From UHGV virus genome UHGV-0084588: a stretch of DNA of 64,000 nucleotides; one strand, given 5' to 3'. The notes under the pieces were generated by a model. It did not search any database. It saw only the letters and a program-made list of their open reading frames with translations, and was not told where the DNA came from. Made by a program: the position numbers and the translations under genes. Source of the stretch: a virus. This document shows positions 15,009 through 46,203 of the stretch, piece by piece (positions within the stretch are counted from its first letter, which is position 1; the number at the start of each line of letters is the position of its first letter).

Positions 15009-15030
15009 CAGATATATATTACTTAAGTGA
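15009..15030 (+). promoter_or_regulatory. Promoter-like motif CAGATATATATTACTTAAGTGA
   Basis: 21 of 22 positions identical to the motif at 19359..19380 (24-nt TTCAGATATATATTACTTA(A/G)GTGA block shared); heads a 420-bp region without ORFs. Confidence 0.4.
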
Positions 15031-15286
15031 ATAGGGACTGAAGTACCAGTTCAGTCCCTACGGACACGTTTCATTCGAAACGGATTGATTAAACCATTTG
15101 GGGAGACAGATCATGTCTACTAAAAAAAGAAAGTCTCAATGAGCTGCTCAAACGTCTTAAAGACTACACTCCATTTAGTACCTTCCGATAACAGGTACTA
15201 AAATTTTACAGTCTGCCCCTTTATTCTGCTACTCGGGATACCGGTAGGGGGTAGGGGGCATTATGTATACGGATATAAATAGCGGA

Positions 15287-15303
15287 GGTATACGTAGTAT
15301 ACC
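15287..15303. promoter_or_regulatory. Perfect 17-bp palindrome GGTATAC-GTA-GTATACC (candidate operator)
   Basis: 7-3-7 inverted repeat about 100 nt upstream of the first paralog gene; an extra GTATAC copy at 15265..15270. Confidence 0.35.
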
Positions 15304-15398
15304 GACATACTCTTCCCAGAGGAACGTAGTGACTTCCTTATTCCTCTTCTGCAATCCATAATAATAGACTCCCCTTTATTGAGATTAGCGAGTAAATC

Positions 15399-16136
15399 AT
15401 GAGAGAATTATTAGACGATATCTTTACTAACACCAGTTTAGAACTTTCTTCTACCGTTGTTAACGAACTATTAAAACAATCGCAACCTGCTAAGTTAATC
15501 GATGCTGGAACAATTAAACCTGAAGATTATCCAGACAGTGACGTTATCGACTGTATGATTGACGAATACGTGATAGGCAGTTACGCCAACCGCGTCTTCT
15601 TCGTTATTAATACCGAAACCAGTGTCATGTTAATCTATAAGTTGATCAGTGATGCCGAACTTGAAGTTGTGGCTGACCACATTCGTCTTCTTGCGAACAC
15701 GCCTACTAGTATCGATGATGTGCTTATTGGGAACGGTTGGGCTTTACCACCACTATTCTCTTACTTCCCTCTGTTTAGAAATGGGATAGGGTTACTCCGA
15801 AATGCAGAAAAGCTTCCCGATAACGTCGAGTTATCACTGCTTGGACCCGGCATCGATCTTTGTCCATTAGAAGACGAGGGCACGCTATATGGTTTGCGCA
15901 TCTATGTTTCTGTGTTAAAGGGTTACCGCGTTATTGAACTGATTGCATCCGACTTAGCAAAACAGATCCCAGATGTGGAAACGATTTCTAAAGCCACCCA
16001 CCTGGTTGAGATTAACTCAGACGATCCCTTATTGAAATATCACGAGAAAATTGATCTTCGTAAAATCGCCACGATGAGAGGGTGGAGTTGTGCTGAGATT
16101 ACGAAGGACTATCTGCTGTTAATTAAAACCGCGTAA
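15399..16136 (+). CDS. Hypothetical protein, member of tandem paralog family (C-terminal GW motif)
   Basis: 245 aa; C-terminus ...RGWSCAEITKDYLLLIKTA resembles the C-termini of the next three genes. Confidence 0.5.
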   Translation: MRELLDDIFTNTSLELSSTVVNELLKQSQPAKLIDAGTIKPEDYPDSDVIDCMIDEYVIGSYANRVFFVINTETSVMLIYKLISDAELEVVADHIRLLANTPTSIDDVLIGNGWALPPLFSYFPLFRNGIGLLRNAEKLPDNVELSLLGPGIDLCPLEDEGTLYGLRIYVSVLKGYRVIELIASDLAKQIPDVETISKATHLVEINSDDPLLKYHEKIDLRKIATMRGWSCAEITKDYLLLIKTA

Positions 16137-16166
16137 TTAAGAAAACCGAAAAAAGGAGAATATACC

Positions 16167-16721
16167 ATGTTTCAAACTGAACTGAAAAATGAAATTATCC
16201 AAACCCTTGAAAAAGGCGTAGGCGAACATTTCTTTGTCCGTCCTTATACCGTACTGACCAATACCATTATCCAGCCAGGTGCGATGATAGTAGGGGTAAG
16301 TGTACAAGCTGTAGAGGAAGCCCCGCTGCGTCGTAACATCACACGTAAAAACCATATTCCATTTAGAACGGGTTTTACAAATTACTTTCAGAGCTTACTG
16401 AAAGATAGCGTTTGGAAAACAGGCAGCTTCTTCCACGAAGGGAAGACTTCCACGCTGGTTTATAAAGAGAACACCAAGTATCTGGTTGATTTTCTCTTAG
16501 CGCGTCAATACGATTTCTTTCCTTCACCCACCGGTCTCACCCCAGACAATCCGAGTAAGCTGTTAAACCAAGACGAAGCTGAAGCACTGCGTGCACAACT
16601 GAGAAAAGAAGGTTGTGATGTCGATGACCATGAAACCTTAATCGGGGTTGCTAAAGCACACGGTTGGTATACCGTGCGTGTATTTGGGCGTCAGATGTTG
16701 TTCTTAGCTTATAACGTTTAA
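16167..16721 (+). CDS. Hypothetical protein, tandem paralog family member
   Basis: 184 aa; AAAGGAG RBS; C-terminus ...AHGWYTVRVFGRQMLFLAYNV. Confidence 0.55.
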   Translation: MFQTELKNEIIQTLEKGVGEHFFVRPYTVLTNTIIQPGAMIVGVSVQAVEEAPLRRNITRKNHIPFRTGFTNYFQSLLKDSVWKTGSFFHEGKTSTLVYKENTKYLVDFLLARQYDFFPSPTGLTPDNPSKLLNQDEAEALRAQLRKEGCDVDDHETLIGVAKAHGWYTVRVFGRQMLFLAYNV

Positions 16722-16732
16722 AGGATGGTATC

Positions 16733-17860
16733 ATGCATATCTGTCATAACGCACCGTCGCACAAACTTTATCTTGAATTGCTTTTCGAGGACTACAAGAA
16801 AGGGGTGCCGAAAATATTACTTAGCATCCCGCCTGATACGCAAACTGAATTGTTCGGTCGCGTTTTTGGTTGTACCGTTAACGCTTTGCCAGAACCAATC
16901 TGTGCGCCTGTGGATAATTGTGTTTTCGACGAACGAATTGAGGATTTTCAATTCACCTTTTACGTAAACGATTCTTTACTGTACGATAAACTCTATGTTC
17001 GTGAGTTGAAATCAAATCAGCGGTTAATGTACCGCGTCTATCCGCCCCACAGAGGGTCGATACTAGAGTATAAAATCAGACGGCTACCTTACGAGGGTGT
17101 GAATTTACTCGACCAGCAGGATATGGCTTTTCTGGAAGAACTCTGTGGATTTGAAATTGAGAAGATTCACGTAACCCAGGAAATATCCCGAAACGTACCT
17201 AGTCGTCATACCCCTTACGGTGGGTTTCCGTACGAGTTCACCGACACAGGACTAAGGCTCGTAACCGAATTTAACGACGTAATGTATTACGCAGTGTGTA
17301 TTGAACGTAAAGTAGTGGAGAAAGAAATGACAAGTACATTGAAAGAAGAATTAGCCCAATTCATTCGTGATGTTGAAGAGAAAAGCAAGAGCGATCACAT
17401 TTTCTCACAACGTTATCCTGAACTTATTGACGAAACCACCGATAGTGTCGTCGATGGTATACGCATTTTCCCAAGTGGTCTTGCAATTTACCGACTGCCT
17501 AGTGTTAATCAGCTTAAAGTCATGGAAATGCTAAAAGACGTTTTAGCAGAAGCAGGTTGGGAATATCGTTTCGATTGCAATTTCGAAGGGATGGCGTTAT
17601 TCGTTACAAAGAAAAATTATACGTTGTCAATCGATCTGCCCAAAAGTCAATATTACAGTTTCTTCCCGAAAGCGGATGACCGCACTGAAAAAGAACCTGC
17701 GATGTTACTTGATGCGGCAGAGTCCAATACGCTAATGATACATCTGCGGACGATTGATAAAGAGTTAACTACCAGTCATTTAACGACGATCGGTAAAGAT
17801 TACGGTTGGAAATCTGTCGAACCGTATGGCAGTCAGCTACTGTTTGTTGCTGACCTCTAA
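16733..17860 (+). CDS. Hypothetical protein, tandem paralog family member with internal duplication of the GW motif
   Basis: 375 aa; two copies of the motif: ...AGWEYRFDCNFEGMALFVTKK (internal) and ...YGWKSVEPYGSQLLFVADL (C-terminal). Confidence 0.55.
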   Translation: MHICHNAPSHKLYLELLFEDYKKGVPKILLSIPPDTQTELFGRVFGCTVNALPEPICAPVDNCVFDERIEDFQFTFYVNDSLLYDKLYVRELKSNQRLMYRVYPPHRGSILEYKIRRLPYEGVNLLDQQDMAFLEELCGFEIEKIHVTQEISRNVPSRHTPYGGFPYEFTDTGLRLVTEFNDVMYYAVCIERKVVEKEMTSTLKEELAQFIRDVEEKSKSDHIFSQRYPELIDETTDSVVDGIRIFPSGLAIYRLPSVNQLKVMEMLKDVLAEAGWEYRFDCNFEGMALFVTKKNYTLSIDLPKSQYYSFFPKADDRTEKEPAMLLDAAESNTLMIHLRTIDKELTTSHLTTIGKDYGWKSVEPYGSQLLFVADL

Positions 17861-17886
17861 TAAGTGAAACTACACTTTCTCTAACT

Positions 17887-17909
17887 GCCGCGCTTTAGTC
17901 GCGGCTTTT
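17887..17909 (+). terminator. Weak intrinsic terminator / attenuator
   Basis: GCCGCG-CTTTAGT-CGCGGC followed by TTTTG. Confidence 0.3.
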
Positions 17910-17928
17910 GTTAAGAAGGAAAAAAGAA

Positions 17929-18708
17929 ATGAAAATCCATTTAGACGACCTCTTTAAAACTGAACCGTACATGGTTAAAGGTTCGCTGGCTTCATTGTTG
18001 CTAGACGATAGATACCATCGAACGCTACAATTACAATCGGTAGAAACCGCGCCAACGGGAATTGAAGACGTGGGTCTTTACCAACGTATCACTCACACAC
18101 GTGGAGAATATCGTCGATATAAACCCGATACACTGACCGTTAAGCTTTGGCAAGTGGGCACAGGCAAGGTATTAAGTTATCGCGCCGTTGGTCTGTACCA
18201 CGTTGAACGTGCTTACACATGGTTAGAAGAAGTTAAAGAAATGGATTACGACCAGCTAAGCAAAAGACTTCGTGACCATAACGCCAGTTTACCGTTACGT
18301 AATTATTTCTCCACAGTTGAAAATAGTCGTTGTTTCGTTTCTCGCGAATCCATGATATTACCTGGAACTGACGTTCAGACGACGCTAAAAGACGTGGTTG
18401 TAAAGAAAGTCTTTCATGAGTCTGAACACGTTGGGTTTCGTATCTATTTAACCCACAAGAGACCATTTACCGTGATTCATGTTGTTACCGTACCCGAAGG
18501 ATCAGCAGTCTCTCGGGAACTTCCTGATGCTCGCGACCGTTGCCCTAATGAGCCGCTCTACTTAATGTCAGGAACAAAATCAACCGCGTTGATGTCTCGT
18601 TACAGCATGATAGATGTTGTTGACGCTGCTATGAAGCTAGGTTGGAAAGAAGTGCAGCAACACGGTAAACAGTTGCTGTTTATTGCCGATGTAAAACTTA
18701 ATTATTAG
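17929..18708 (+). CDS. Hypothetical protein, tandem paralog family member
   Basis: Track ORF 17908 starts at TTG; ATG at 17929 follows AAGGA; C-terminus ...LGWKEVQQHGKQLLFIADVKLNY. Confidence 0.55.
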   Translation: MKIHLDDLFKTEPYMVKGSLASLLLDDRYHRTLQLQSVETAPTGIEDVGLYQRITHTRGEYRRYKPDTLTVKLWQVGTGKVLSYRAVGLYHVERAYTWLEEVKEMDYDQLSKRLRDHNASLPLRNYFSTVENSRCFVSRESMILPGTDVQTTLKDVVVKKVFHESEHVGFRIYLTHKRPFTVIHVVTVPEGSAVSRELPDARDRCPNEPLYLMSGTKSTALMSRYSMIDVVDAAMKLGWKEVQQHGKQLLFIADVKLNY

Positions 18709-18720
18709 TGAGGTGGAACC

Positions 18721-19299
18721 GTGTACCGATTAATAGAAATGCGAAAAGACGTTTGGTTGGAAAATCTCGTCGATGGGGAGCTTGAGGGAGTTGGGCTTTC
18801 CTTACCAGAAAGGGCGGACACGGTATTAGCCTTTCTGATAAAGCGGGCAGCGAATGAACCTGTGGGGATTTTCGACGTGGATTACAAAGAACCGCGCGGA
18901 ATTCGTTTACGTAACATCTGTTGTGGTTTAGAGAACTTGACGGCAAGTCCTTTCGTAAACTACGCAAAACGTAAACTCCAGCCAGGGCAACATCTCTGGG
19001 TAGTTCTAGCGCCAGATATTCGCATTATGCGAGACGACCTGACTGCGTTTGTGCAAGCAACGAAAGTCAGTTTGTACAATCCTAATGCGGAACGTACCGA
19101 TATGCCGTTTACAATCACCTTAGAAGACGATGGAACGCAAGAGGGCATTGAGGCGATTACGGAATTAGTAAACTCTTATCCGGTTGCATCTATCGAGTTA
19201 GAAAACCCAAACCGATTACCGTTGGGGGATTTACTCGAATGGATTGAGCTGAATACTGAGTTCCTCATTAACTCCCGACAATATCGGTTCGATGTATAA
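18721..19299 (+). CDS. Hypothetical protein (192 aa)
   Basis: GTG start after GAGGTGG; followed by an intrinsic terminator; lacks the GW motif. Confidence 0.45.
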   Translation: MYRLIEMRKDVWLENLVDGELEGVGLSLPERADTVLAFLIKRAANEPVGIFDVDYKEPRGIRLRNICCGLENLTASPFVNYAKRKLQPGQHLWVVLAPDIRIMRDDLTAFVQATKVSLYNPNAERTDMPFTITLEDDGTQEGIEAITELVNSYPVASIELENPNRLPLGDLLEWIELNTEFLINSRQYRFDV

Positions 19300-19303
19300 C
19301 GTC

Positions 19304-19336
19304 GGTGGGGGTAAACCCCCACCTTTTATTTTTTGT
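19304..19336 (+). terminator. Intrinsic terminator
   Basis: GGTGGGGG-TAAA-CCCCCACC followed by TTTTATTTTTTG. Confidence 0.7.
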
Positions 19337-19358
19337 TCGTCAACATTAAAAATAATTT

Positions 19359-19380
19359 CAGATATATATTACTTAGGTGA
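19359..19380 (+). promoter_or_regulatory. Promoter-like motif CAGATATATATTACTTAGGTGA
   Basis: Directly after terminator 19304..19336 and about 50 nt upstream of the first secreted-protein gene. Confidence 0.45.
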
Positions 19381-19429
19381 GAGTTATGATTAACTCATTT
19401 ATACATTAACGCCTTAAAGGAGCAAAACA

Positions 19430-19891
19430 ATGAAATTTTTTACTTCCTTTTTAACCATCCTCTTAACGCTGGGTCTCAATACTGCACACGCAGCAATCAA
19501 TAGCTGGGAACAAATCCAGTCTCCAGACCAAGCCATCTACGAAATCGAAGACACTGAAGGCAACAGCCTCTCTATCAATTGCAGTACAGAAACCGCCAAT
19601 CGTAAATTTTACGGGCACAATGTTTGGTATTACGGAGAACCTGCAGGGGCAACAAACGCTGAGGATAACGCGCTCGATATTGTCGTAAATGGTAAAAAAT
19701 ACCGTATCCCTACCATCGACGGTAGCGACCGTTCAGAACAAGCCTGGGCGGATTTCATTAAAGCGGTCGGTGGGGCAAACCATTTTAGCTTGCTTATTAA
19801 CGATAACGTGGCAGCAGGGTTTACCGTAGAAGGCGAACGCCTTAACGAAACGTTTTTCCAGAACTGTGGACACAGCCGTCCTAACAAATAA
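19430..19891 (+). CDS. Secreted/periplasmic small protein (signal peptide)
   Basis: 153 aa; N-terminus MKFFTSFLTILLTLGLNTAHA is a classic Sec signal ending AHA; Cys present; AAAGGAG RBS; preceded by terminator plus promoter-like motif. Confidence 0.55.
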   Translation: MKFFTSFLTILLTLGLNTAHAAINSWEQIQSPDQAIYEIEDTEGNSLSINCSTETANRKFYGHNVWYYGEPAGATNAEDNALDIVVNGKKYRIPTIDGSDRSEQAWADFIKAVGGANHFSLLINDNVAAGFTVEGERLNETFFQNCGHSRPNK

Positions 19892-19913
19892 ATATTAATC
19901 TTTTTTAGAGTGC

Positions 19914-20306: not shown

Positions 20307-20324
20307 TCTAAAGGAGTAGTTGCA

Positions 20325-21642: not shown

Positions 21643-21670
21643 GGCCCCGGAATGTCCGGGGTCCTTTTTT
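21643..21670 (+). terminator. Intrinsic terminator
   Basis: CCCCGG-AATGT-CCGGGG followed by TCCTTTTTT. Confidence 0.65.
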
Positions 21671-22921: not shown

Positions 22922-25426
22922 ATGCTAAAAGTTGAACGCATTATACTCAAAGGTTTTACGGGGATGGGATTACATGAAATTGAAACTTTCGATTTCACTA
23001 TCCAGTCTCCAACAACAATTATCCTGGGTGGGAACGGTTGCGGGAAAACCAGTCTACTGTCTGTATTCTTACCCTTAGCACCGGCTAAAACTGAATTCAG
23101 AGACGGCGGTTCTTACACGAACTACTGTTTAGTTGGTGATCAACGGTATCGATTCAAAGTTGCCCGTAAAGGTAACTCTTTGGTTTGCGATATTGAAAAT
23201 CTGACCACGGGAGCAAAGATCGTCGAGCAAGGTAATGCGAAGGTCTACAACTCCCGTGTTGAAGAAATCACGGGTATTACGAAAGAAATTAAAGAACTAT
23301 TAAATGGTGATGTTTTGTTAACCGATGCGGGAACCGAATTACGCCGTAAATGGTTTTACCGTTTAAGTACCTCTGATCTCACATACGCGTTAGGGTTTTA
23401 TCAACGTTTGCGTAAAAACCTTACCGCCTTAAATGGGGGTATTGAAATCACCAGTCGCAAGATTGCCGAATTACGGACGCGTGTTATTGAGAACGAGGAA
23501 GAACGACAACAATTAGCAACGAGATTAAAAGGTCTGGAATCGGATTTACGTGAACTGAACCGAGAAATCGAACAGTTGCCAGGATTAAATCGTGCTGTCA
23601 CGATCGAAACAATCCAAGCGTTATTAAACGGTTTGGGTCCAACCATCGACGCAATATTACAACATCGTGGTGGGTTGCCTACTGATGAACAGATACTGGT
23701 CGCCCGACAAAATGAAGCGACAGCCCGCGAAGCCGTCGTTTCTACCGAAACAGAGGTATCGATGTTGAATAAAGATTTATCGCTATTGATGGATGAGTCA
23801 ACACGACAAGACTACCTGATGCGGAATCACGAAGGTCTCAAGAATACACTGGCACGTTTACGTGAGTTACTTACCAAGTGGGACACCGAACATCTCTTTC
23901 CAGGTTTATTTAACGATAACGTTAATTTAGACCAACTTCGTGCGGCTACCGATGCGCGTGTTTGGGGACAACGGTTGGGGACAACACTGGACGCTATTCA
24001 TTCAACCGAGAAACTCAATGTTTTGGAAGAACGTCTTCTGGTGATGGATCAAAAAACCGCAGGATTACGGGATAGACTCCAGCGAGTGGAGAACGTTTTA
24101 CAGAATTTAAATCACGAGCGTAACCACTACTTAGAAACGGCAGAAGTGGATTGTCCGCAGTGTCGGTTTAAGTTTCGGCCAGGTGTTACGCGTTCTTTAC
24201 CTGAACTCGAGTCATCGATTCGTGGACAACAACAGCAGCGGACGGAACTGCAAACGCAGTTAGAGACTTTATTACGCGATCGTGTTGAATTAGAATCTGA
24301 TGTAACTTATATGCGGCAGGTTCGTGAGATTGTACTGACGTATTCAAAAGACCCTGTATTGAGCATGTTCTTTAAGCGTTTGCAAGAACGTAACGTTTTC
24401 ACAGAGTCTCGCGAGCAGTTCGGGAGTCTATGCGCAGCGTTTGACGGTGAGTTGTACTCTGCTATTGAGTACCATGAAACCCGACAACGGTTAGTGAAAG
24501 CGGAAAAAGAATGGCAGGATGCCGTGGCGGCCGTTGGTAACGTCGATGGTGCTTTACAACAAAAGATCGCCTTCCAACAGTCACGGTTAGGTAAAGCCAC
24601 AGAGATGCTCTCAATGCGTCGTAGAGAGCACGAACTGGCTAACACGACACTTACCTATCTAGTGAATGTTAAACGTGCTGTAGATGATTTCAGTGCGTTA
24701 TTCGAACGGTTAGAGAGTGATGTTAAGGTTACTTTGACAAATACGGTCGTCGAGGAGCTCTTACGAGTGCGGGAAGGGAAGCTGGATGCTTTTACAACTG
24801 CACGCGAACGTTATCGTCAGATGGAAAACGAATTGAATCAGCTCAACAGTTTGGAGCGCGAACTTACAGACTTACAAGCCCAACAGTTCAATAACAAACT
24901 GATGATTCAAGCCTTCTCGCCAGAAAAGGGTGTACTTAGAAAGTATTTTTACAACGCTATCGTTAGAATCACAGAGTTAATGACGCGTTATATCGAACAG
25001 GTCTGGACGTACCCCATGCGCGTTATGCCCTGTGATCTCACTGACGGTGATTTGGATTATACTTTTCCTGTCCAGCTAAAAACGCACCCTGAGCCTGTTC
25101 CTGACGTGCGTAAAGGGTCTAAGGCACAGCGTGCTATATTTAATCTGATGTTCAGACTGACTGCGTACAAAGCGTTGAAGTTGCATCAGTTTCCGTTGCT
25201 TTTGGATGAGCCTTCGGAAGGCATGGACGAGGAGCACCGTAATAACCTGGTCGGCTTTATTAAAACGTTAGCAAACTCGGGAGAATTTTCACAGCTGTTG
25301 GTAGTCTCCCACGAAGCCGAGGTTCATTCTAAACTTAATGAAGCATCGTACTGTGTCATCGAACCGGAAGGAGTGACATTGCCTGCGGTGTATAACGAAG
25401 GAGTAAAAATTGTTTATGCAAACTGA
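22922..25426 (+). CDS. Rad50/SbcC-like (SMC-type) ATPase
   Basis: Walker A ILGGNGCGKTSLLS near the N-terminus, long charged coiled-coil-like middle, C-terminal Walker B/D-loop LLLDEPSEGMDEEH and VVSHEAEV. ATG at 22922 after GGAGGTGGG; the track start 22910 is an alternative codon. Confidence 0.7.
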   Translation: MLKVERIILKGFTGMGLHEIETFDFTIQSPTTIILGGNGCGKTSLLSVFLPLAPAKTEFRDGGSYTNYCLVGDQRYRFKVARKGNSLVCDIENLTTGAKIVEQGNAKVYNSRVEEITGITKEIKELLNGDVLLTDAGTELRRKWFYRLSTSDLTYALGFYQRLRKNLTALNGGIEITSRKIAELRTRVIENEEERQQLATRLKGLESDLRELNREIEQLPGLNRAVTIETIQALLNGLGPTIDAILQHRGGLPTDEQILVARQNEATAREAVVSTETEVSMLNKDLSLLMDESTRQDYLMRNHEGLKNTLARLRELLTKWDTEHLFPGLFNDNVNLDQLRAATDARVWGQRLGTTLDAIHSTEKLNVLEERLLVMDQKTAGLRDRLQRVENVLQNLNHERNHYLETAEVDCPQCRFKFRPGVTRSLPELESSIRGQQQQRTELQTQLETLLRDRVELESDVTYMRQVREIVLTYSKDPVLSMFFKRLQERNVFTESREQFGSLCAAFDGELYSAIEYHETRQRLVKAEKEWQDAVAAVGNVDGALQQKIAFQQSRLGKATEMLSMRRREHELANTTLTYLVNVKRAVDDFSALFERLESDVKVTLTNTVVEELLRVREGKLDAFTTARERYRQMENELNQLNSLERELTDLQAQQFNNKLMIQAFSPEKGVLRKYFYNAIVRITELMTRYIEQVWTYPMRVMPCDLTDGDLDYTFPVQLKTHPEPVPDVRKGSKAQRAIFNLMFRLTAYKALKLHQFPLLLDEPSEGMDEEHRNNLVGFIKTLANSGEFSQLLVVSHEAEVHSKLNEASYCVIEPEGVTLPAVYNEGVKIVYAN

Positions 25427-27090: not shown

Positions 27091-27588
27091 ATGTTAACGG
27101 TACGTAAAGAATCTGAAATTGGTAACGATCTTTTTAATGCGCCCGAAGACTATAAAGTCGTTACCATTAACTGTGTAGGAGCAATGGGTCGCGGTATTGC
27201 GCTGGCGTGCCGTGAACGCTACCCCAACCTTTATCAAGATTACCGTAAGCGGTGTCGCGAAGACGAAATTAAGATTGGAAGTGTTTACGTTTACCCTGAT
27301 GAAAAGTGCATCTTGCTCCCCACGAAAACACATTGGCGTTTAAAGTCCCAGGTTTCTTATGTTACTGCGGGCATTACCGCATTAGCAGATTGTATTGAAG
27401 AACTGGATACCAGCGTTGCTATCCCTCCACTGGGAATGGCAAATGGGTGGTTAGATTCCTGGGAAAGACAAGAAATCTTCTTGTGGCTTTACAAAAAACT
27501 TGAACCGAGGAGGCAACGCTACACGTTATACTTACCCGATAAGCTGTACCGAGAAGCAGAGTCATTAATTCCAAACTCTTTTAAATAG
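27091..27588 (+). CDS. Macro domain protein, TARG1/OARD1/DarG-like (putative ADP-ribose hydrolase)
   Basis: VVTINCVGAMGRGIALACRERYP ... LPTKTHWRLK ... VAIPPLGMANGWLDSWE aligns by eye with recalled TARG1 segments ([22 protein letters not shown] ... KKRASHKPT ... LSMPRIGCGLDRLQWE). Track start 27028 is TTG; first ATG is 27091. Confidence 0.6.
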   Translation: MLTVRKESEIGNDLFNAPEDYKVVTINCVGAMGRGIALACRERYPNLYQDYRKRCREDEIKIGSVYVYPDEKCILLPTKTHWRLKSQVSYVTAGITALADCIEELDTSVAIPPLGMANGWLDSWERQEIFLWLYKKLEPRRQRYTLYLPDKLYREAESLIPNSFK

Positions 27589-27604
27589 ATATTATCATTA
27601 GGGC
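27586..27604 (+). promoter_or_regulatory. Promoter-like motif ATAGATATTATCATTAGGG
   Basis: AGATATTATC core shared with 37068 and 46181; immediately after the macro gene stop, upstream of the SLT gene. Confidence 0.35.
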
Positions 27605-28897: not shown

Positions 28898-28938
28898 TAC
28901 CCCTTACCCTTTACGGAGTAAGGGGTAATTTTATTTTC
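28898..28938 (+). terminator. Intrinsic terminator
   Basis: TACCCCTTAC ... GTAAGGGGTA 10-bp stem followed by ATTTTATTTTC. Confidence 0.6.
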
Positions 28939-28959: not shown

Positions 28960-29439
28960 ATGATAAAATTCATTTGGCGTTACCCAACACGTTTTTGGTT
29001 TGTGGTGCTTGAACTGTGTATGGTTCTTGTAGCGGTTACTTTTATCGATGCACCTGCCTCACAGTTGACCATTTTCTGTCTTTTCGTGGCAGTTCCTGTA
29101 TGGGTTATTGCGAAGGCTATTAAGTTCGCCATGGTGAGTTGGGCGAATTATACGTGTCCGTATAAACCTAGACAAATCATGAACTGGTTAATGTTTATTG
29201 AAGAACGTTTACCGGCGCAACGTAAATTACTGGGCTGGTCGTCAATGTTAGATATTGCGCTAGAAACCAATGCAAAGTTCCCCGGCGCGAAAAACCCGTA
29301 TTTGCTGTTGGCGGTAATTGTTGCGCAACAAAAACTGGTAGGCGATCGTTGGTTGCCAGAAGAAGCGAAAGCGTATATCCGTAAACATCCAAAAGCTTTT
29401 TACTCGGTAGGTCAATGGCGTAACTTACCACTATTTTAA
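28960..29439 (+). CDS. Membrane protein with two N-terminal TM helices (holin-like topology, unproven)
   Basis: 159 aa; FWFVVLELCMVLVAVTFI and IFCLFVAVPVWVIAKAI hydrophobic segments; sits downstream of the SLT gene. Confidence 0.45.
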   Translation: MIKFIWRYPTRFWFVVLELCMVLVAVTFIDAPASQLTIFCLFVAVPVWVIAKAIKFAMVSWANYTCPYKPRQIMNWLMFIEERLPAQRKLLGWSSMLDIALETNAKFPGAKNPYLLLAVIVAQQKLVGDRWLPEEAKAYIRKHPKAFYSVGQWRNLPLF

Positions 29440-30433: not shown

Positions 30434-30466
30434 CCCTACTCCTCCGGGAGTAGGGTTAATTCTTTT
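30434..30466 (+). terminator. Intrinsic terminator (CCCTACTCC family)
   Basis: CCCTACTCC-TCCG-GGAGTAGGG followed by TTAATTCTTTTT. Confidence 0.7.
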
Positions 30467-31035: not shown

Positions 31036-31045
31036 AATAAAAGCT

Positions 31046-31078
31046 ACCCTACTCCTTCTGGAGTAGGGTAATCTTTTT
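31046..31078. terminator. Bidirectional intrinsic terminator (CCCTACTCC family)
   Basis: TACCCTACTCC-TTCT-GGAGTAGGGTA with A-run upstream and T-run downstream, between convergent genes. Confidence 0.7.
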
Positions 31079-36412: not shown

Positions 36413-37074
36413 TCGTTTATAGTGAGGTCTTGTCAAAAGCCCCTCGGTTTTTACAAACTCACTTTATGTATAACGCACGGCAGTATTGGGGCTTTAAAGC
36501 CCCTTACTCCGAAGATTGGGAAGTTGTGGAAAAGTTAGCATTTGTGTTTTCTCTTTCGTTGTTGTGGGAGATCATTGCACTATACAACGCGGGTTGTGAT
36601 ATCCCTGAGAACGGCTTTTTCCAACAACACCTATTCCAAAAATTCACAGCATCGATAGAAAATCATGAAGTACGCAAGGAGTGTATCGGCTACGCAGAGC
36701 ATTCTGAAGAATTGAGAAAGATTTCCAAATTAGTTATCACGCGGGCATGGGCTGAATTCGAAACTTACCCCGAAAAAATAATTTGGTTTAATCGTGAACA
36801 GTTTATTAAAGAGGCAGTCAGTCAACATCCCGTTCGATTAATCGTGTTAAAGCCGTCCGATCTTGCCTTACGCCGTGTCTATTCGTTTCCAGAGGAAATC
36901 ATTTTTTCCGCAGGAACAGCAGATTATGGTATTTTTAAGCAAGGTGATTCTTGGATTCTTCCGCACGACTTAGACCAGTATTTGCTCAATAGCGATCAAA
37001 TACATTCGGGTTATGACTCACAGGTGAAGGAGTTTACAGTCGATCCTTTTTTCGCTAAAAATATTCTTAGATAG
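36406..37074 (+). CDS. Hypothetical protein (222 aa)
   Basis: Track ORF; start overlaps the RNase H stop (ATGCTGA). Confidence 0.4.
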   Translation: MLIVYSEVLSKAPRFLQTHFMYNARQYWGFKAPYSEDWEVVEKLAFVFSLSLLWEIIALYNAGCDIPENGFFQQHLFQKFTASIENHEVRKECIGYAEHSEELRKISKLVITRAWAEFETYPEKIIWFNREQFIKEAVSQHPVRLIVLKPSDLALRRVYSFPEEIIFSAGTADYGIFKQGDSWILPHDLDQYLLNSDQIHSGYDSQVKEFTVDPFFAKNILR

Positions 37075-37088
37075 ATATTATCCAGGTG
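37068..37088 (+). promoter_or_regulatory. Promoter-like motif TAGATAGATATTATCCAGGTG
   Basis: AGATATTATC core; about 40 nt upstream of the ATG at 37111. Confidence 0.35.
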
Positions 37089-39411: not shown

Positions 39412-39445
39412 ACCCTAGCTTCGGCTAGGGTAACTTTATTTTTAA
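39412..39445 (+). terminator. Intrinsic terminator
   Basis: ACCCTAGC-TTCG-GCTAGGGT followed by AACTTTATTTTT. Confidence 0.65.
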
Positions 39446-40392: not shown

Positions 40393-40417
40393 GCTAAAAG
40401 TGTTTAGGAGCATTAAA

Positions 40418-41317
40418 ATGATAGCGAATAATAGACTTTACGGGAAAGCGCTAAGACGCATGAGCGAACAGATAGAAAAAGCGCACCAAACAATTCACGG
40501 ATTAGACCAGTGCCGTTTTATTCGGTTCATTAACGAGCATAAACGACAAATACCCGTAACGTTTATGCCAGTTAAAGATCCGACTTATCGAGAGTATGGT
40601 GTTACAGAACAGATTCCTAGACTGATTAAACAGTCCCTGGGTCTAGGGTGGCAATACGCTGCTGTTGAAATCATCTCGGATGAAGAACTGATGGCGCTCT
40701 TAGCAAAAACTGAGAGACTAAAAAATATCCCGTACTTCTGGATAGAAACCATCCCTTCATTTACTTTCTCGGTTACCGTAAATCTCGACGAAAGCCCAAT
40801 CACGTTATTTATCGGAAGACGTCTTTACGAAGGCGAAGAAGTTCTCTTTGTGATGTCATGCGAAGAACGTGAAGAATCGGTATACATGGAGTTTGAGATT
40901 TACAAAATCGATAAAAGCGAAGATGATTTCGTCGAGCTAAAACCGCTCCTTACTTCGGTTAAAGAGAATCAACGACTACTCGACGCCGTCTACATCGGGC
41001 TATATCTTTCGTCACGAATTAAACGTACTGAACGTGAGAAGAAAGAATTTCGTGGAAGAACGATTCGTTATGTTCCTGATACAGAGATTCGCCCACGTAG
41101 TGAAGCAGTCGTTTTAGACGTAAGTCCGGTACAATGGGAAGATATAGAGCAGCAACGCAAGGAAGGACACGAGGTTTGTTTGGCAATTTATTGCGCAGCA
41201 CATATCCGTCGTGCTCATTGGAAGCGTGTATGGTGTGGTAAAATGTCAGAAATGCGCTGGCGCGAATGGCGATGGATAGCGCCAAGCTACATCTCTGGAT
41301 TTTATCGTGGGAAATAA
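40418..41317 (+). CDS. Hypothetical protein (about 300 aa), paralog of 39466..40392
   Basis: ATG at 40418 after TTAGGAGCATTAAA (track start 40322 lies inside the upstream gene); C-terminus AAHIRRAHWKRVWCGKMSEMRWREWRWIAPSYISGF; internal GWQYAAVEIISDEELMAL. Confidence 0.5.
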   Translation: MIANNRLYGKALRRMSEQIEKAHQTIHGLDQCRFIRFINEHKRQIPVTFMPVKDPTYREYGVTEQIPRLIKQSLGLGWQYAAVEIISDEELMALLAKTERLKNIPYFWIETIPSFTFSVTVNLDESPITLFIGRRLYEGEEVLFVMSCEEREESVYMEFEIYKIDKSEDDFVELKPLLTSVKENQRLLDAVYIGLYLSSRIKRTEREKKEFRGRTIRYVPDTEIRPRSEAVVLDVSPVQWEDIEQQRKEGHEVCLAIYCAAHIRRAHWKRVWCGKMSEMRWREWRWIAPSYISGFYRGK

Positions 41318-41323
41318 ATAGTT

Positions 41324-41362
41324 TACCCCTAGACCGTGTGGTCTAGGGGTAGCTTTACTTTT
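41324..41362. terminator. Bidirectional intrinsic terminator
   Basis: ACCCCTAGACC-GTGTG-GGTCTAGGGGT followed by a long T tract, between convergent genes. Confidence 0.7.
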
Positions 41363-42118
41363 TTATTTTTTGTTTGCCTTAAGCGCTTTTAAGCGTTCGG
41401 CAGTAACGTTCAGGCATTCGATTAATTCGTTAACCTGTTTCATGAACAAACCAAACAGCTCCACCCAATCGGAAGCAAAATCTAACATCATCGTCAGTTC
41501 TTTTGCTACATTCGGATGAATGTTTTGTTCGGACAAGATTTCTGACGTAGTGCGAATAGACTCGATTGACTTGTCGATGTTTGTCCGTAGACGTTTTGTG
41601 ATTTCAACGTTCAGTGCCTTAGCGCGATTGAACGCAACATCAATTTCGGACGCGCTGTGATACGTCTTCTCAATTGGTCGCTGGTCGATAACGTTGTTAG
41701 TGTACGATTTCGCTAACAAGTTAACCAGATCTTTCGGGTTAACGTTACGTAAAGGTATATTAACATTTTTGTAACGGAAACCAATCGGTAATGACAGTAC
41801 ACCCACATCATGTGTAAGGGCCGAAAGTTGTTTATCGACCGGCAACAGAATACCCGTATAAATGTTTTGCAGTGAACTCCATACGGATTCTAAGCGGTTC
41901 AAATGATCCATCACGTAGGTATTAAACCCAGGTGGAACGATAACCAACATTCCCGCAAAGTGAAGGAATTTTTCTTGTTGCATCCACTTGGAAACGTCCG
42001 ACATCTCGTCATAAGTGGTTAATGCAATCTCTTGTTGAGGGCCACTAAAGCCTTTCGGTAAGATTGCAGACGCTTTAGCGGCGAAGCTAGATAACGCTGC
42101 AAGTGGATTTACATTCAT
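41363..42118 (-). CDS. Hypothetical protein (251 aa)
   Basis: Isolated minus-strand gene ending at a bidirectional terminator. Confidence 0.5.
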   Translation of the reverse strand: MNVNPLAALSSFAAKASAILPKGFSGPQQEIALTTYDEMSDVSKWMQQEKFLHFAGMLVIVPPGFNTYVMDHLNRLESVWSSLQNIYTGILLPVDKQLSALTHDVGVLSLPIGFRYKNVNIPLRNVNPKDLVNLLAKSYTNNVIDQRPIEKTYHSASEIDVAFNRAKALNVEITKRLRTNIDKSIESIRTTSEILSEQNIHPNVAKELTMMLDFASDWVELFGLFMKQVNELIECLNVTAERLKALKANKK

Positions 42119-42216
42119 TCTAAAACCTCGGATTATAAGTCAGGGTTACATAGTAAAGTCTTTTTACAGTTCACCCAAACCTTATGACCGAGACAATTCC
42201 ATAAAGGTAAAGCTCG

Positions 42217-42516
42217 ATGAAAATCAAATTACTGACTCGAAACACCACACCGCGTTTAGAACCGGAAATTTATCTGACCCCAGTTAAAAAAGGTCAGAAC
42301 GGTAAACCTATTCAAGTTGGAAAAGTCTTGAGCGTAACGTCGTGCCCGAGCGGTAAACGTGTTATGGAACTGGAAATTGACGAGCGTAACAAACGCCGTT
42401 TCGAGTCTATTGAAAACCCTTATCCTGAAAATGTGGAAGAAGTTACTGAGTGGGTAGAGACCTACTTTGAATTCTGGCACAACCGCCGTCTCCTTCTTCC
42501 GACCAAGAATCGTTAA
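42217..42516 (+). CDS. Hypothetical protein (99 aa)
   Basis: Track ORF; basic/acidic mixed small protein. Confidence 0.4.
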   Translation: MKIKLLTRNTTPRLEPEIYLTPVKKGQNGKPIQVGKVLSVTSCPSGKRVMELEIDERNKRRFESIENPYPENVEEVTEWVETYFEFWHNRRLLLPTKNR

Positions 42517-42531
42517 TTATCGGAGCGCTAA

Positions 42532-44028
42532 ATGGCAGGCCCAACTAAACAAGTTATCGGTGAAGTAATTCGTCCACGTTTTAACGTTTACACCATCATG
42601 GATCATGCCTTAGGTAACTACGAAAAAGGTGAAGATGGTTTGTACTACCTTAACGGTGGTTTTGCCCACATCATGGGTTTCGCAGGTCGCGGTAACACTT
42701 TTAAATCCACCTTGTTAGATTTCTGTATTTTCCAAATCCTGCAACGTTATAAAGCAGAGTGGGGTTCTAAGTACGATACAGAAGTGTCAGCCGCCCTCGA
42801 TCGTTTAGAAACTGGGTACATCTCTGCCATGAACGCTAACGGTATCGACGACGGAACGTCCGTACTGGAGCTTATCCACGAAGGTCGATATAACCTGGTC
42901 GGTTCTGACGTAATGCCTGGGGAACAGTATTACAGTGATTATATTCGCGATGAAGTTGAAAAACGCTTCAAGCAGTATATGTCTGGTAAAACCCGCGTAA
43001 CGCCGTTCCCCGATCCGGTTCGTCGTAAGTTAAAAGAAATCCTGGACCCCTGGCTTTATTCTATCGATTCCCTGTCAGAGTGGCATTCCAGTTCGCTGGA
43101 AGACAAACACGCAAAAACGGATATTGGGGATTCTGATCAGAACATCCTCAACGCCCACGATGCCCTGCAAAAGTCGAACATGATGAGCCGCTGGCCGTCT
43201 GCGTTTGCACGCGGTGGTTTTTACATGGGCTTCGTGGCACAGATGGCCGATGACTCTGGGAAAGCGATGGCAGGTGGCCGTCAGGCACAAAAAGCAAATG
43301 CGAAAATTCTTGACGATGCCAACGACGATTTAAAATTCGCAGGTATTCCTCGCCGTCAGCTTAGCTTTTTAACAAACTCTTTTATCGTCGCGACGAAATC
43401 AGGGGAACTGAAGAAAGACCAGAGCTATAACGCGCAGACGGGTGTTAACGAAGAACTTTATCCGACGTCACGCTCTAAGGCGATGAATGCTTCGGTAAAC
43501 GACTTGAAGATTATCACCTTTACTCAGTATCGTGCGAAGGGTGGTCACACTGGTGTGAAATTCCAGATGATCTTCTCTCAGGAAATGGGTCTGTTATATC
43601 ACCTGAGCCTGTGGCACTATTTAAGCGACACACTGAAGAAGTCAGACTTTGGTTTCACGTCAAGCGGTAGTGGCGGCTCCATCAAAGAACTGGACATTCT
43701 ACCTGGTGTGAAATTCCAACGCACGACAATCCGTGATATGATTTCTGATAACGCACGCTTACGTCGCGCTTTAGAAATCACGGCGGCAATCGCGTATATG
43801 CAAAACAACTACCATCGTCTTGAAATGAAGTATCATCTCAGCATGGGTGAGATTTACAAACTGATTGACGAGAAGTGGGACTGGAATGAAATTCTGGACA
43901 ACACGGTAGAATACTGGATGTTTAAAGACCAGGAAACCAAAGGCGGTAAACGCACACTGACTGCACGTACTATTCTGGGTATGGCTGTCGATGGACTAGA
44001 ACCGAAGTTCCTGACGAAAAAGAAATAA
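42532..44028 (+). CDS. Hypothetical protein (498 aa)
   Basis: Track ORF; imperfect P-loop-like GFAGRGNTFKST; function not assignable. Confidence 0.5.
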   Translation: MAGPTKQVIGEVIRPRFNVYTIMDHALGNYEKGEDGLYYLNGGFAHIMGFAGRGNTFKSTLLDFCIFQILQRYKAEWGSKYDTEVSAALDRLETGYISAMNANGIDDGTSVLELIHEGRYNLVGSDVMPGEQYYSDYIRDEVEKRFKQYMSGKTRVTPFPDPVRRKLKEILDPWLYSIDSLSEWHSSSLEDKHAKTDIGDSDQNILNAHDALQKSNMMSRWPSAFARGGFYMGFVAQMADDSGKAMAGGRQAQKANAKILDDANDDLKFAGIPRRQLSFLTNSFIVATKSGELKKDQSYNAQTGVNEELYPTSRSKAMNASVNDLKIITFTQYRAKGGHTGVKFQMIFSQEMGLLYHLSLWHYLSDTLKKSDFGFTSSGSGGSIKELDILPGVKFQRTTIRDMISDNARLRRALEITAAIAYMQNNYHRLEMKYHLSMGEIYKLIDEKWDWNEILDNTVEYWMFKDQETKGGKRTLTARTILGMAVDGLEPKFLTKKK

Positions 44029-44034
44029 ATGGGC

Positions 44035-44056
44035 TCGGGTAGGGATTACCCTACCC
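44035..44056 (+). other. Stem-loop CGGGTAGGG-ATTA-CCCTACCCG without T-tract, just upstream of an RBS
   Basis: Same GTAGGG/CCCTAC palindrome type as the terminators, but followed directly by AAGGAG and ATG at 44073. Confidence 0.35.
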
Positions 44057-44072
44057 GACCTAAGGAGTCATC

Positions 44073-44372
44073 ATGCGTTATCAAACGGAGATTGTGGAAC
44101 GCTTAAGTGAAGGATTGGCAAGTGTTAATTTAGAAACAGCGGCCGAATTTCGTGAAGCCTTCACTCTTCCGTTTCCCGATCTGGAATCCTTTTGTTTAAA
44201 GGTCGCTGAGTATTACTCGAATCTATTAGTACGTTACGGGTATGCGCCAGTACGTTCCGAACTTCCTGAAAACACGGAAGCTATCAGCTACTGGATTGAC
44301 CTGCTTGAAGCAGAAACGTTATCCAATCTACGTAAGGCGGTAGACAATGAAACTCGAACCAGCGCGGCGTAA
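44073..44372 (+). CDS. Hypothetical acidic protein (99 aa)
   Basis: AAGGAGTCATC-ATG; preceded by GGGTAGGG/CCCTACCC hairpin. Confidence 0.4.
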   Translation: MRYQTEIVERLSEGLASVNLETAAEFREAFTLPFPDLESFCLKVAEYYSNLLVRYGYAPVRSELPENTEAISYWIDLLEAETLSNLRKAVDNETRTSAA

Positions 44373-45015
44373 GAAGGCGGAAGCCTACGCCTTACAAATC
44401 TTAAAGTTGGTAGACCCTTCTGGCATTAATGCCGAAGCCGCGAAGAAAGCCTTCGCACGAATGACCGACGAACAGTTTAACCGACTTCGTAACGGTTTAC
44501 CTATTTACAACCCGGTGGGAAGTAAAGTCGAAATTGACCACCTGCGCAATATCGAGGTGTGCAAAATCCTAGGGGTAAACCTGGAGCAACGGTTGTGGCT
44601 AACAGAACCAAAAACAGGTGTTTATCACCGTACTCGTTACCCTCACTTGGTCTTACGCTTGCCTGTCCGTCGTCAGACGCAGATGCAAGAAAAGAAAATG
44701 GCGGTTGCGAAGAACGACAAAGTTCGCGATAAACTCTCCGGTCAAGTTGTCGGTCCTTCCAAAGCATCCGGGGTCTCCTTCCCAGAAGCATACATCATGT
44801 ATTCCGATGGTCACGACTGGACACTGAAAGAGTTCTTGTGGGCGCGTGGTGGTAACGACGCACTACAACGTGCTTTCTATCAGTCGCTGCGCCAAACCGG
44901 TAAAGGACGTATCGATTTGCCTGGAGCGGAGCGAACGAGTTCTAAAGCAACACGGACGTGGTCAGCGTACCTCAAAGCGATGCATATCGGTAACAACATA
45001 GGCCATCCGTCATGA
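44347..45015 (+). CDS. Hypothetical protein (222 aa)
   Basis: Track ORF overlapping the upstream gene by 26 nt. Confidence 0.45.
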   Translation: MKLEPARRKKAEAYALQILKLVDPSGINAEAAKKAFARMTDEQFNRLRNGLPIYNPVGSKVEIDHLRNIEVCKILGVNLEQRLWLTEPKTGVYHRTRYPHLVLRLPVRRQTQMQEKKMAVAKNDKVRDKLSGQVVGPSKASGVSFPEAYIMYSDGHDWTLKEFLWARGGNDALQRAFYQSLRQTGKGRIDLPGAERTSSKATRTWSAYLKAMHIGNNIGHPS

Positions 45016-45734
45016 GATTATCTCGACGTTTCTTAATCGATATTGATACGCTATTTGATACGCGTTTAGGTTGGGTAAAAGCCATTAAGCCTGAAAGCTT
45101 AGCCTTACTAGACTACGATGTTTATCGGCGTCGCTATACAGAAGCATGGGCGGGTGTACTCGGGTTTGAAAAATGGGATGAAGAGTGGCGGAAGCGGGAT
45201 AAGCGCGCATTGATTAATGCGCAGCCTACTGAATTATTGGCAACGATGAAAAACGAATTCGAGTGTATGATGCTTGAAATCGAAATGCATTCGCCAATTG
45301 AAAAACCTACTCTGACCATCAATACATGGCCTTATACGGATTTAACAGGCGAAGAACTTCAAGCCTTTTTGAATCTGTTTCGGATGTATTACAATAACGT
45401 ACAAGTCGAATTGGTGTCTTGGTCGTTAGAAGACCTCACACCGGGGAGATTATCATTGGCGTGGGATTGCTGGATAATGTACGATTGGTTCGAGTGGATT
45501 AAGCTTAACGCTTCGCACTTGAAAAAACCGATTCCAAGCTTTACCATCACACACCCTGCCATGCTCACACCAGAATTGACCGGCGTGTTGGTTGAACAAA
45601 TCAAACAAGACGGCGTTAACCCGTTTAAGGAACATATCCGGTTTATGGCAGAGTGGGTCGGTGTCGACCCACGGGATGCTGCTTTATTTAGTCTTGCTCG
45701 TCCTGTTCAGGACGTGCAAACGCCGCCATCATAA
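45012..45734 (+). CDS. Hypothetical protein (240 aa)
   Basis: Track ORF; ATGA overlap with the upstream gene; 3' end overlaps the convergent acidic-protein gene. Confidence 0.45.
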   Translation: MRLSRRFLIDIDTLFDTRLGWVKAIKPESLALLDYDVYRRRYTEAWAGVLGFEKWDEEWRKRDKRALINAQPTELLATMKNEFECMMLEIEMHSPIEKPTLTINTWPYTDLTGEELQAFLNLFRMYYNNVQVELVSWSLEDLTPGRLSLAWDCWIMYDWFEWIKLNASHLKKPIPSFTITHPAMLTPELTGVLVEQIKQDGVNPFKEHIRFMAEWVGVDPRDAALFSLARPVQDVQTPPS

Positions 45735-46152
45735 TGGACTTAACATCGATTTGTTCACCTACTGGTGCCAGCTCCCCTTCTGTTACCTCAACATTGGGAA
45801 TAGCAGGAACGGGGGGCTGGTAGCCCTGGGTTTCTTCGATTTCCTCATCATGACGTCGTATTTTGATATTACCACGTTGCATGAGGATGCTATTAAGTGC
45901 ATTCGCCAAATCTTGGTTAGCTTCGCTGTTTTTCTGTGCAGCGGCGACACGACGTTTGGAAATGATTTGTTTATCAACGTCGTTAAGCAAAGACCCTAGA
46001 CGGTCTACCGTTTTCAAGTCTTTGTGTGCTTGTGGATCGTCTAAGATGAGGTTCACAATCCGTACACGGGCTTGTTGCGTTTGGCGGAGAAGCGATTCTT
46101 CGTCGTCCACATCTCCATCAAACGCCTGATATTTCACTTCTTCGTCAGCCAT
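45688..46152 (-). CDS. Highly acidic protein (154 aa)
   Basis: GAGGT RBS before the ATG; termini MADEEVKYQAFDGDVDDEE... and ...ARPEQDEQD; Asp/Glu-rich throughout. Confidence 0.45.
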   Translation of the reverse strand: MADEEVKYQAFDGDVDDEESLLRQTQQARVRIVNLILDDPQAHKDLKTVDRLGSLLNDVDKQIISKRRVAAAQKNSEANQDLANALNSILMQRGNIKIRRHDEEIEETQGYQPPVPAIPNVEVTEGELAPVGEQIDVKSIMMAAFARPEQDEQD

Positions 46153-46180
46153 TCTTACTACCTCAATTTCAAAAAGAAGT

Positions 46181-46203
46181 CAGACAGATATTATCTACGT
46201 GAG
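46181..46203 (+). promoter_or_regulatory. Promoter-like motif CAGACAGATATTATCTACGTGAG
   Basis: AGATATTATC core in a divergent intergenic region, about 30 nt upstream of the ATG at 46224. Confidence 0.35.

Follow-up and report, generated by a model that had tools for sequence, protein, structure and literature searches.

Five plus-strand sites in the window, a stretch of 64,000 nt of viral DNA, are very probably early promoters of an SPN3US-like jumbo phage that are read by the virion RNA polymerase (vRNAP), where the polymerase, the timing and the exact start points are inferred. The promoter class has already been described in related phages and the five sites are further members of it. They share one motif, which agrees with the consensus published for early promoters of the phages OBP, N1M2, 201phi2-1 and phiKZ (TATATTAC). 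An earlier, sequence-only reading of this DNA had proposed a phage-specific promoter class, and this holds, as the motif is the consensus of phiKZ-like jumbo-phage early promoters and its span of ~36 nt does not have a sigma70 architecture.

Five Probable Promoter Sites

All five recurring sites described in the sequence-only reading were found on the plus strand, with motif starts at 15006, 19356, 27579, 37065 and 46178. The 24-nt block reported to share 23 identities between the first two sites was recovered for 15007-15030 and 19357-19380, whereas the block counted from 15009 has only 21/24 identities.

14994..15030, plus strand: P1, TATATATTAC sub-type; A-rich upstream part and 24-nt core 15006-15029; PWM score 31.6 bits
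19344..19380, plus strand: P2, TATATATTAC sub-type; core 19356-19379; 46.1 bits
27567..27603, plus strand: P3, GATATTAT sub-type; core 27579-27602; 23.9 bits
37053..37089, plus strand: P4, GATATTAT sub-type; core 37065-37088; 30.5 bits
46166..46202, plus strand: P5, GATATTAT sub-type; core 46178-46201; 40.1 bits

In all five sites an A-tract, TTTCAGAT, A(T/G)ATATTA(C/T), N4 and GTG follow each other in a common register and form one motif. At P3 the GTG is replaced by GGGCACA, with GGG displaced by one base. The string AGATATATATTAC is present exactly at starts 15010 and 19360, and AGATATTATC exactly at starts 27587, 37073 and 46186, 1-5 nt away from the positions given in the sequence-only reading. 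A degenerate pattern, AGATATWATWWC, gave 0 matches; the two strings of the sequence-only reading do not align in that way.

The three exact copies of AGATATTATC compare with an expectation of 0.13, and this number was reached in none of 100 shuffles. Neither TATATTAC alone nor AGATATTATC with 1 mismatch was significant by itself; significance is limited to the extended motif. A whole-window scan with a position weight matrix (PWM), a check suggested along with the sites, was done on both strands (128 kb in total) with a matrix trained on Salmonella phage SPN3US only. The five sites obtained the scores listed above, the next-best match had 9.1 bits and 20 shuffles gave 14.2 bits at most. When up to 4 mismatches were allowed, TTTYARRYAKATATTATYWWADTG, the consensus published for OBP, matched exactly at these five sites and nowhere else on the two strands; that of N1M2, at up to 5 mismatches, matched four of the five and no other position. 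P1 has 2 mismatches to both the OBP and the N1M2 consensus, P2 is the closest of the five sites to the consensus, and the phiKZ consensus TATATTAC is exact at both.

Host sigma70 promoters, with TATTAT or TATATT as -10, an UP-like A-tract and no -35, would be another way to read these sites, since both hexamers are 5/6 identical to TATAAT and the A-rich tract upstream resembles an UP element. Such a reading is very improbable. A scan for -35/-10 hexamers with 16-18 nt spacing called none of the five sites, which agrees with the lack of a -35 reported before, and sigma70-like matches in the region were even below expectation (28 vs 34.7 and 25 vs 33.6). The ~36 conserved nucleotides include TTTCAGAT and GTG, two elements with no sigma70 counterpart, the same motif is found in phages of Pseudomonas, Klebsiella, Erwinia and Salmonella, and the development of phiKZ is rifampicin-resistant (PMC4666361; PMC13282480).

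Location of the Probable Promoters and Their Transcription Units

According to our own gene model only 4.4% of the window is intergenic; all five sites are located at gene boundaries, and each has the orientation of the genes downstream. Two of them, including P3, overlap the 3'-terminal 10 nt of the ORF upstream, and P5 lies in a divergent intergenic region. From the motif end to the next start codon the distance is 23, 23, 51 and 87 nt for the four sites other than P1; for P1 it is ~84 nt if a micro-ORF is counted and 370 nt if only long ORFs are. Every promoter unit finishes at an intrinsic terminator:

19304..19331, plus strand: terminator at the end of the P1 unit, directly upstream of P2; 8-bp stem with 7 GC pairs, then a T-run
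21643..21663, plus strand: terminator at the end of the P2 unit (terminator scan)
28904..28928, plus strand: terminator at the end of the P3 unit (terminator scan)
39412..39431, plus strand: terminator at the end of the P4 unit (terminator scan)
50384..50411, plus strand: terminator at the end of the P5 unit (terminator scan)

Two of the sites had been described as lying directly after a terminator; only P2 follows a clear one (19304-19323 plus T-run), and the terminator scan found none before P1, P3, P4 and P5. The genes downstream of the five sites are of unknown function, apart from one SLT enzyme. No early motif was detected upstream of the virion, baseplate and tail genes in the window.

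Conservation in SPN3US and Related Phages

The window comes from an uncultivated SPN3US-like, phiKZ-related jumbo phage. It is syntenic with SPN3US over its whole length, and the virion proteins of both are ~53% identical. It encodes one vRNAP subunit; the remaining subunits are encoded outside the window.

44347..45015, plus strand: vRNAP beta-C subunit gene; 83% identical over 221 aa to a 222-aa SPN3US protein

Judging from its length and map position, this SPN3US protein is probably gp218, the vRNAP beta-C subunit that is present in virions (PMC5105663). There is no early motif upstream of the gene in the window.

Orthologs of the five sites are located in SPN3US at 161915, 165683 (P2), 174950 (P3, with the same GGGCACA), 184040 (P4) and 191598 (P5). 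In addition, 17 IMG/VR loci contain exactly one match each, at the expected position and strand. The P1 match is found in 11 of the related loci, that of P3 in L010 and L011, that of P4 in L007-L009 and that of P5 in L006. The DNA around the sites has no nucleotide similarity to known phages, and in a megablast search 6 kb of it matched by the promoter itself only. At P2, a stretch of 42 nt (19345-19386) recurs with 100% identity between genes of the Erwinia phages phiEaH2 and Stratton.

In the complete SPN3US genome 23 motif sites were found, all on the plus strand, of which 22 are intergenic according to the annotation; one match, at 25222, is inside a gene. The operons headed by the sites at 28965, 72680 and 15610/15703 contain, respectively, gp34/35, gp77 and another gene annotated as an RNAP subunit. 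The genes gp34/35 and gp77 have been named as genes of the non-virion polymerase (nvRNAP) of SPN3US (PMC5105663), and the gene of the third operon, annotated as 'RNA polymerase beta subunit', is taken to be gp23. None of the SPN3US sites precedes a vRNAP or virion structural gene.

Probable Assignment to the Early Class

The sequence-only reading had suggested middle or late promoters, which would be read by the nvRNAP. It is true that the motif is phage-specific and is found repeatedly where transcription units begin; nevertheless this assignment is very unlikely to be correct. Middle promoters of phiKZ have an A-rich run followed by TACT near -22, and its late promoters have TATG at +1, whereas the register of the motif is that of the phiKZ early class. 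The five sites lack TATG and have an extended upstream consensus. Neither in the window nor in SPN3US does the motif precede virion, tail or baseplate genes. It heads the nvRNAP operons of SPN3US, which are needed before the nvRNAP exists and cannot be transcribed by it until then. The sites are assigned to the early class and not to the middle or late ones. A phiKZ-type TATG signal upstream of the non-early units was considered separately and, in a rough count, was not more common than chance.

The early assignment is also consistent with what is known from phiKZ. The SPN3US matrix scores the promoter upstream of PHIKZ054 with 25.7 bits in an unchanged register, and for this gene a primary start site with the early motif was assigned by dRNA-seq (PMC8244752). 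Early promoters that are attributed to the vRNAP are marked by such an AT-rich motif, with its centre near -10, in all jumbo phages that encode RNAPs (PMC7598289; PMC11512511), an assignment which in the studies consulted was made by timing and exclusion. Only for phiKZ and 201phi2-1 have primary 5' ends been shown that lie ~10 nt behind the AT-rich core, arise at once upon infection and are insensitive to rifampicin. Points against the early-promoter reading are the secreted SLT transglycosylase among the downstream genes, for which an early role is not obvious, and the SPN3US match that is located within a gene (25222).

Least probable of all is that the motif is no promoter and serves as an operator for a phage DNA-binding regulator, which the 5-bp inverted repeat AGATA...TATCT of the GATATTAT sub-type could equally do (reverse strand of P5 9.1 and of P4 5.6 bits), or as an RNA processing signal, to which P3 and P4 would fit by lying within same-strand gene runs with no terminator before them. 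The TATATATTAC sub-type, which is the best conserved, is not palindromic, however; 5/5 sites in the window and 23/23 in SPN3US are oriented as the downstream genes; several sites follow terminators or occupy divergent regions, where there is no upstream transcript to be processed; and in phiKZ and 201phi2-1 homologous motifs lie ~10 nt upstream of TEX-resistant or capped primary 5' ends.

For the sites as early promoters the following mechanism is proposed. A multisubunit vRNAP, carried in the virion, would enter the cell together with the DNA and recognise the extended element of ~36 nt. In the predicted numbering the A-tract lies near -30, TTTCAGAT near -20, the centre of A(T/G)ATATTA(C/T) near -10 and GTG at ~-3 to -1. 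Transcription would begin at or just after GTG, for P1 near 15029-15031, without host sigma70, and each promoter would drive a short operon up to the intrinsic terminator, the genes being small, non-structural and for the most part uncharacterised.

Leader Features and the Two Sub-Types

The predicted leaders of P1 and P2 contain several additional features:

15032..15060, plus strand: stem-loop where the P1 transcript is predicted to begin, with a stem of 11 bp and a loop of 7 nt
15113..15190, plus strand: 25-codon micro-ORF downstream of P1; an additional A within an A7 run breaks the frame
19381..19396, plus strand: short stem-loop where the P2 transcript is predicted to begin; fold GAGTTA-TGAT-TAACTC

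In 4 distinct sequences pairing of the P1 stem-loop is 100%, although both partners of 3 pairs have changed, compared to 23-50% pairing in slid controls. All 6 SPN3US sites of the TATATATTAC sub-type have equivalent hairpins with different stem sequences. A 5' stem-loop is thus present at 8/8 TATATATTAC sites, covarying at P1, and is lacking in the GATATTAT sub-type. The micro-ORF is intact (25 aa) in L013-L015, and deletion of one A in the window restores a similar 25-aa ORF.

The P1 leader also includes an ultra-conserved block of 135 nt. Folding of the block on either strand gave unremarkable z-scores (-0.5 to -2.0), and the plus-strand genes flanking it are unrelated between the window and SPN3US. 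Searches against Rfam (the whole window at the gathering threshold, the P1 leader at an E-value threshold) revealed no RNA gene, a tRNA scan found nothing, and blastn of the P1 leader against phage records gave no match. For the gene downstream of P2 no relatives were found in IMG/VR.

That the two flavours are not noise and represent functionally distinct early sub-classes is a tentative idea that we consider rather unlikely, and we are equally doubtful about the separate suggestion that the 135-nt block is an undescribed regulatory RNA or DNA element. If the sub-classes are distinct, genes with the TATATATTAC cassette could be immediate-early, RNA-stabilised or under separate regulation.

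Comparison With Known Systems

For an uncultivated jumbo phage the analysis places five transcription-unit starts and, with them, probably the early gene set. The promoter class was previously described and no new question is raised. The SPN3US-trained matrix is portable and finds such promoters cleanly across SPN3US-like genomes. The specificity attributed to the virion polymerase is kept almost base for base from Pseudomonas to enterobacterial phages, which is useful for the engineering of such phages and for the design of vRNAP biochemistry.

The early promoters of phiKZ consist of TATATTAC with a T/A-rich upstream part, comprise 28-32 sites and are attributed to the vRNAP. P1 and P2 contain exactly this core, and the upstream A-tract, TTT-AGAT and the downstream TG are in a common register. 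Unlike in phiKZ, the GTG element is stronger in the window phage and 3/5 sites carry GATATTAT instead of TATATTAC; host and genus differ as well, and the sites of the window clade are predicted from sequence. The predicted early promoters of OBP (Pseudomonas; TTTYARRYAKATATTATYWWADTG) and N1M2 (Klebsiella; TTTCARRYAKATATTATYWAAGTGWA) are near-identical to the window motif over 24-26 nt. For these phages one flavour (KATATTAT) was reported, whereas the window phage and SPN3US mix KATATTAT with the phiKZ-type TATATATTAC. In 201phi2-1, where 6 early promoters (...TTTRARR-BTATATTACDWHDGTG) were mapped by ONT-cappable-seq, the core, the GTG near the start site and the -10, -20 and -30 regions are conserved, although this is a Pseudomonas phage of another genus.

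Bacterial sigma70 promoters share with the window motif an AT-rich hexamer near -10 (TATAAT); the window motif differs in that it lacks a -35, is conserved over ~36 nt and is not called by a simple sigma70 scan. In coliphage N4 an injected virion polymerase likewise reads a small dedicated set of early promoters. However, N4 uses a polymerase of a single subunit and promoters that are DNA hairpins, and there is no homology of sequence or enzyme to the system described here.

Five plus-strand sites share one extended motif

All five of the promoter-like sites claimed in the sequence-only reading are found in the sequence, on the plus strand, although its positions were off by 1-5 nt. The exact string AGATATATATTAC starts at 15010 and 19360 and AGATATTATC at 27587, 37073 and 46186, all on the plus strand. 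The reported identity at 23 of 24 positions holds for 15007-15030 versus 19357-19380, but the two strings as originally written were out of register with each other. Once properly aligned, the five sites share the pattern TTTCAGAT-A(T/G)ATATTA(C/T)-N4-GTG, except that GGGCACA replaces GTG at 27579. Three occurrences of AGATATTATC were counted where 0.13 would be expected; short cores by themselves have no significance, whereas the extended motif is significant.

The sites were scored with a position weight matrix of 48 columns, which is independent of the window because it was trained only on 23 sites of the Salmonella phage SPN3US.

Predicted promoters P1-P5 (sites 1-5), with matrix scores and transcription units
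P1: motif start 15006, plus strand, 31.6 bits; unit to 19299, terminator 19304, possible internal stop 17887
P2: motif start 19356, plus strand, 46.1 bits; unit to 21632, terminator 21643
P3: motif start 27579, plus strand, 23.9 bits; unit to 28893, terminator 28904
P4: motif start 37065, plus strand, 30.5 bits; unit to 39406, terminator 39412
P5: motif start 46178, plus strand, 40.1 bits; unit to 50379, terminator 50384

The runner-up on either strand scored 9.1 bits and mirrors one of the five sites on the reverse strand, and maxima over 20 shuffles were 2-14 bits. Given this gap, the original list is correct and complete for the window. By our gene model only 4.4% of the window is intergenic, and each of the five sites falls at a gene boundary and is oriented like the next gene. 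An equal frequency of the motif in coding regions had been named as a refutation; in the window the motif is absent from the interior of coding regions. Two sites had been said to follow a terminator directly; of the five, only site 2 clearly does so. Sigma70-like matches were not enriched, and none coincided with any of the five sites. The five sites are very probably functional.

The motif is conserved in related jumbo phages

The top tblastn matches of the window are SPN3US-like jumbo phages (~53% identity), SPN3US being the nearest relative that can be cultivated, and the whole window is collinear in gene order with SPN3US 150-200 kb. The large minus-strand ORFs of the window code for structural proteins of the virion and for a protein of the baseplate. 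ORF 44347-45015 is 83% identical to a 222-aa SPN3US protein, which by length and map position would be gp218, identified by mass spectrometry as the beta-C subunit of the virion RNA polymerase (PMC5105663). The nearest sequences are uncultivated IMG/VR genomes of ~225 kb with 82-99% protein identity. In a megablast search with 6 kb, no nucleotide similarity to the phage record collection was found besides the promoter itself.

A 131-nt query around site 2 matched 237 places in 73 phage records; the matches listed are nearly all intergenic, several to a genome, and come from jumbo phages of Salmonella, Erwinia, Cronobacter, Proteus and Escherichia. A 42-nt stretch at site 2 is 100% identical to sites in the Erwinia phages phiEaH2 and Stratton. 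When the complete SPN3US genome was scanned with the published consensus of phage OBP, 23 convincing sites were obtained, all on the plus strand and 22 of them intergenic by our comparison with the annotation. The positional counterparts of the five window sites are 161915, 165683, 174950, 184040 and 191598. In each of 17 related IMG/VR loci, retrieved via neighbouring genes, exactly one match of at least 14 bits was present, at the expected place and strand. A good match at SPN3US 25222-25245 falls within gene ACQ60_gp236, and the next gene follows 284 nt downstream; this match may be an internal promoter.

Two flavours of the core and 5' hairpins

The core flavours of P1 and P2 (TATATATTAC) and of P3-P5 (GATATTAT) are both also present in SPN3US. 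Hybrids occur at SPN3US 4423 and 238177 and in phiEaH2 (locus L016), and at one orthologous position the flavour switches between genomes. Therefore, both were treated as one family.

All eight TATATATTAC sites (two in the window, six in SPN3US) are followed by a hairpin where the RNA is predicted to begin (mean z -2.4), whereas the 18 GATATTAT-type sites have no such hairpin (mean z -0.2).

Stem-loops after TATATATTAC promoters in the window
15032-15060, 5' stem-loop
19381-19396, 5' stem-loop

TATATATTAC sites with 5' stem-loop in SPN3US
56290, 65409, 94235, 113982, 165683, 223273

The stem sequences vary from site to site. The P1 hairpin has an 11-bp stem that pairs fully in four distinct sequences, with three compensatory pairs among relatives. 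A leader AATCGACTATTAATCTAAAGGAG, reaching the ribosome-binding site, is common to SPN3US 65409-65480, 94235-94310, 113982-114059 and 223273-223349 and is missing at window P2. Together with the shared hairpin it suggests a duplicated promoter-leader cassette in SPN3US.

The P1 leader

Four sites had been placed a short distance upstream of a gene start. Site 1 is no exception to this rule, with a 25-aa micro-ORF conserved in relatives lying ~84 nt downstream.

15113-15190, plus strand, micro-ORF of 25 codons, conserved in relatives as MSTEKKSGLDEVIELFKRYNPAIPR and similar

In the window an additional A in the A7 run at 15122-15128 disrupts this micro-ORF, which may reflect an error in sequencing, gene decay or a site of frameshifting; L012, the closest relative, has lost the micro-ORF by deletion. 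Further along the leader, a non-coding block at 15213-15345 (~135 nt) shows 96-97% identity over four relatives while its flanks diverge. Homologs of the block occur in SPN3US (161480-161549) and loci L012-L022; recognisable ones adjoin the baseplate gene in SPN3US, phiEaH2 and others and have in common GGGGG-N-GGGGG, GCGGAGG, a covarying hairpin and CGACA, and the plus-strand neighbour gene is not conserved. The block had no match in Rfam, and its folding is unremarkable on either strand.

Timing and proposed mechanism

In phiKZ the subunits of the non-virion RNA polymerase (nvRNAP) are early gene products, and those of the polymerase carried in the virion (vRNAP) come from middle genes (PMC4666361). 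The SPN3US site at 28965 directly heads the operon of nvRNAP gp34/35, the site at 72680, with a second at 72482, heads the gp77 operon, and sites 15610 and 15703 head a third operon, in which one more gene carries the annotation 'RNA polymerase beta subunit'. No motif site lies ahead of the SPN3US vRNAP genes gp42, gp218, gp240/241 and gp244 or of any virion gene, the two SPN3US gene numbering schemes being matched here by gene length and position. In the window, the matrix scan likewise found no motif at the vRNAP beta-C gene or any structural gene. This distribution argues for early promoters rather than the middle or late class of the sequence-only reading.

The genes after the five promoters encode small proteins of unknown function and one secreted SLT transglycosylase. 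The latter, the P3 gene (27689-28387), is a lytic transglycosylase with an SLT domain and a signal-peptide-like N-terminus, a function not expected of a gene predicted to be early; the P3 arrangement is conserved in SPN3US.

The virion polymerase would enter together with the DNA and bind an element of ~36 nt. With -10 taken as the centre of the AT-rich core, this element would consist of an A-tract (~-32 to -26), TTTCAGAT (-24 to -17), ATATTAY (-14 to -8) and GTG (-3 to -1), and transcription would start near 15030, 19380, 27603, 37089 and 46202. The predicted leaders, not in promoter order, are 22, 22, 50, ~84 and 86 nt long.

A terminator stem TACCCTACTCC...GGAGTAGGGTA recurs at several operon ends (30434-30455, 31045-31070 on both strands, 50384-50411), with variants at 28904-28928 and 41323-41352.

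Comparison with published early promoters

Predicted early-promoter consensuses of the group were tabulated by Lewis et al. (PMC7058600), and in the literature the virion polymerase is taken to read the early promoters of these phages (PMC7598289, PMC8244752, PMC11512511, PMC13282480).

Predicted early-promoter consensuses (PMC7058600)
N1M2: TBYAWWWWWTTTCARRYAKATATTATYWAAGTGWA
OBP: BSHAWWWWWTTTYARRYAKATATTATYWWADTG
201phi2-1: ...TTTRARR-BTATATTACDWHDGTG
phiKZ: TATATTAC

With at most 4 mismatches, the OBP consensus matches exactly the five window sites. The SPN3US-trained matrix gives 25.7 bits, in unchanged register, to the phiKZ site upstream of PHIKZ054 (aaaaaaaTTTGAGATTTATATTACTAAATTG), a gene with a primary start site in dRNA-seq that was assigned to the early motif (PMC8244752). 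The five sites fall into a class of promoters known from earlier work on phiKZ-like phages. The core of P1 and P2 is of the phiKZ type and that of P3-P5 of the OBP type. The reused terminator stem of the window is also reminiscent of the terminator motifs described as conserved in phiKZ and 201phi2-1.
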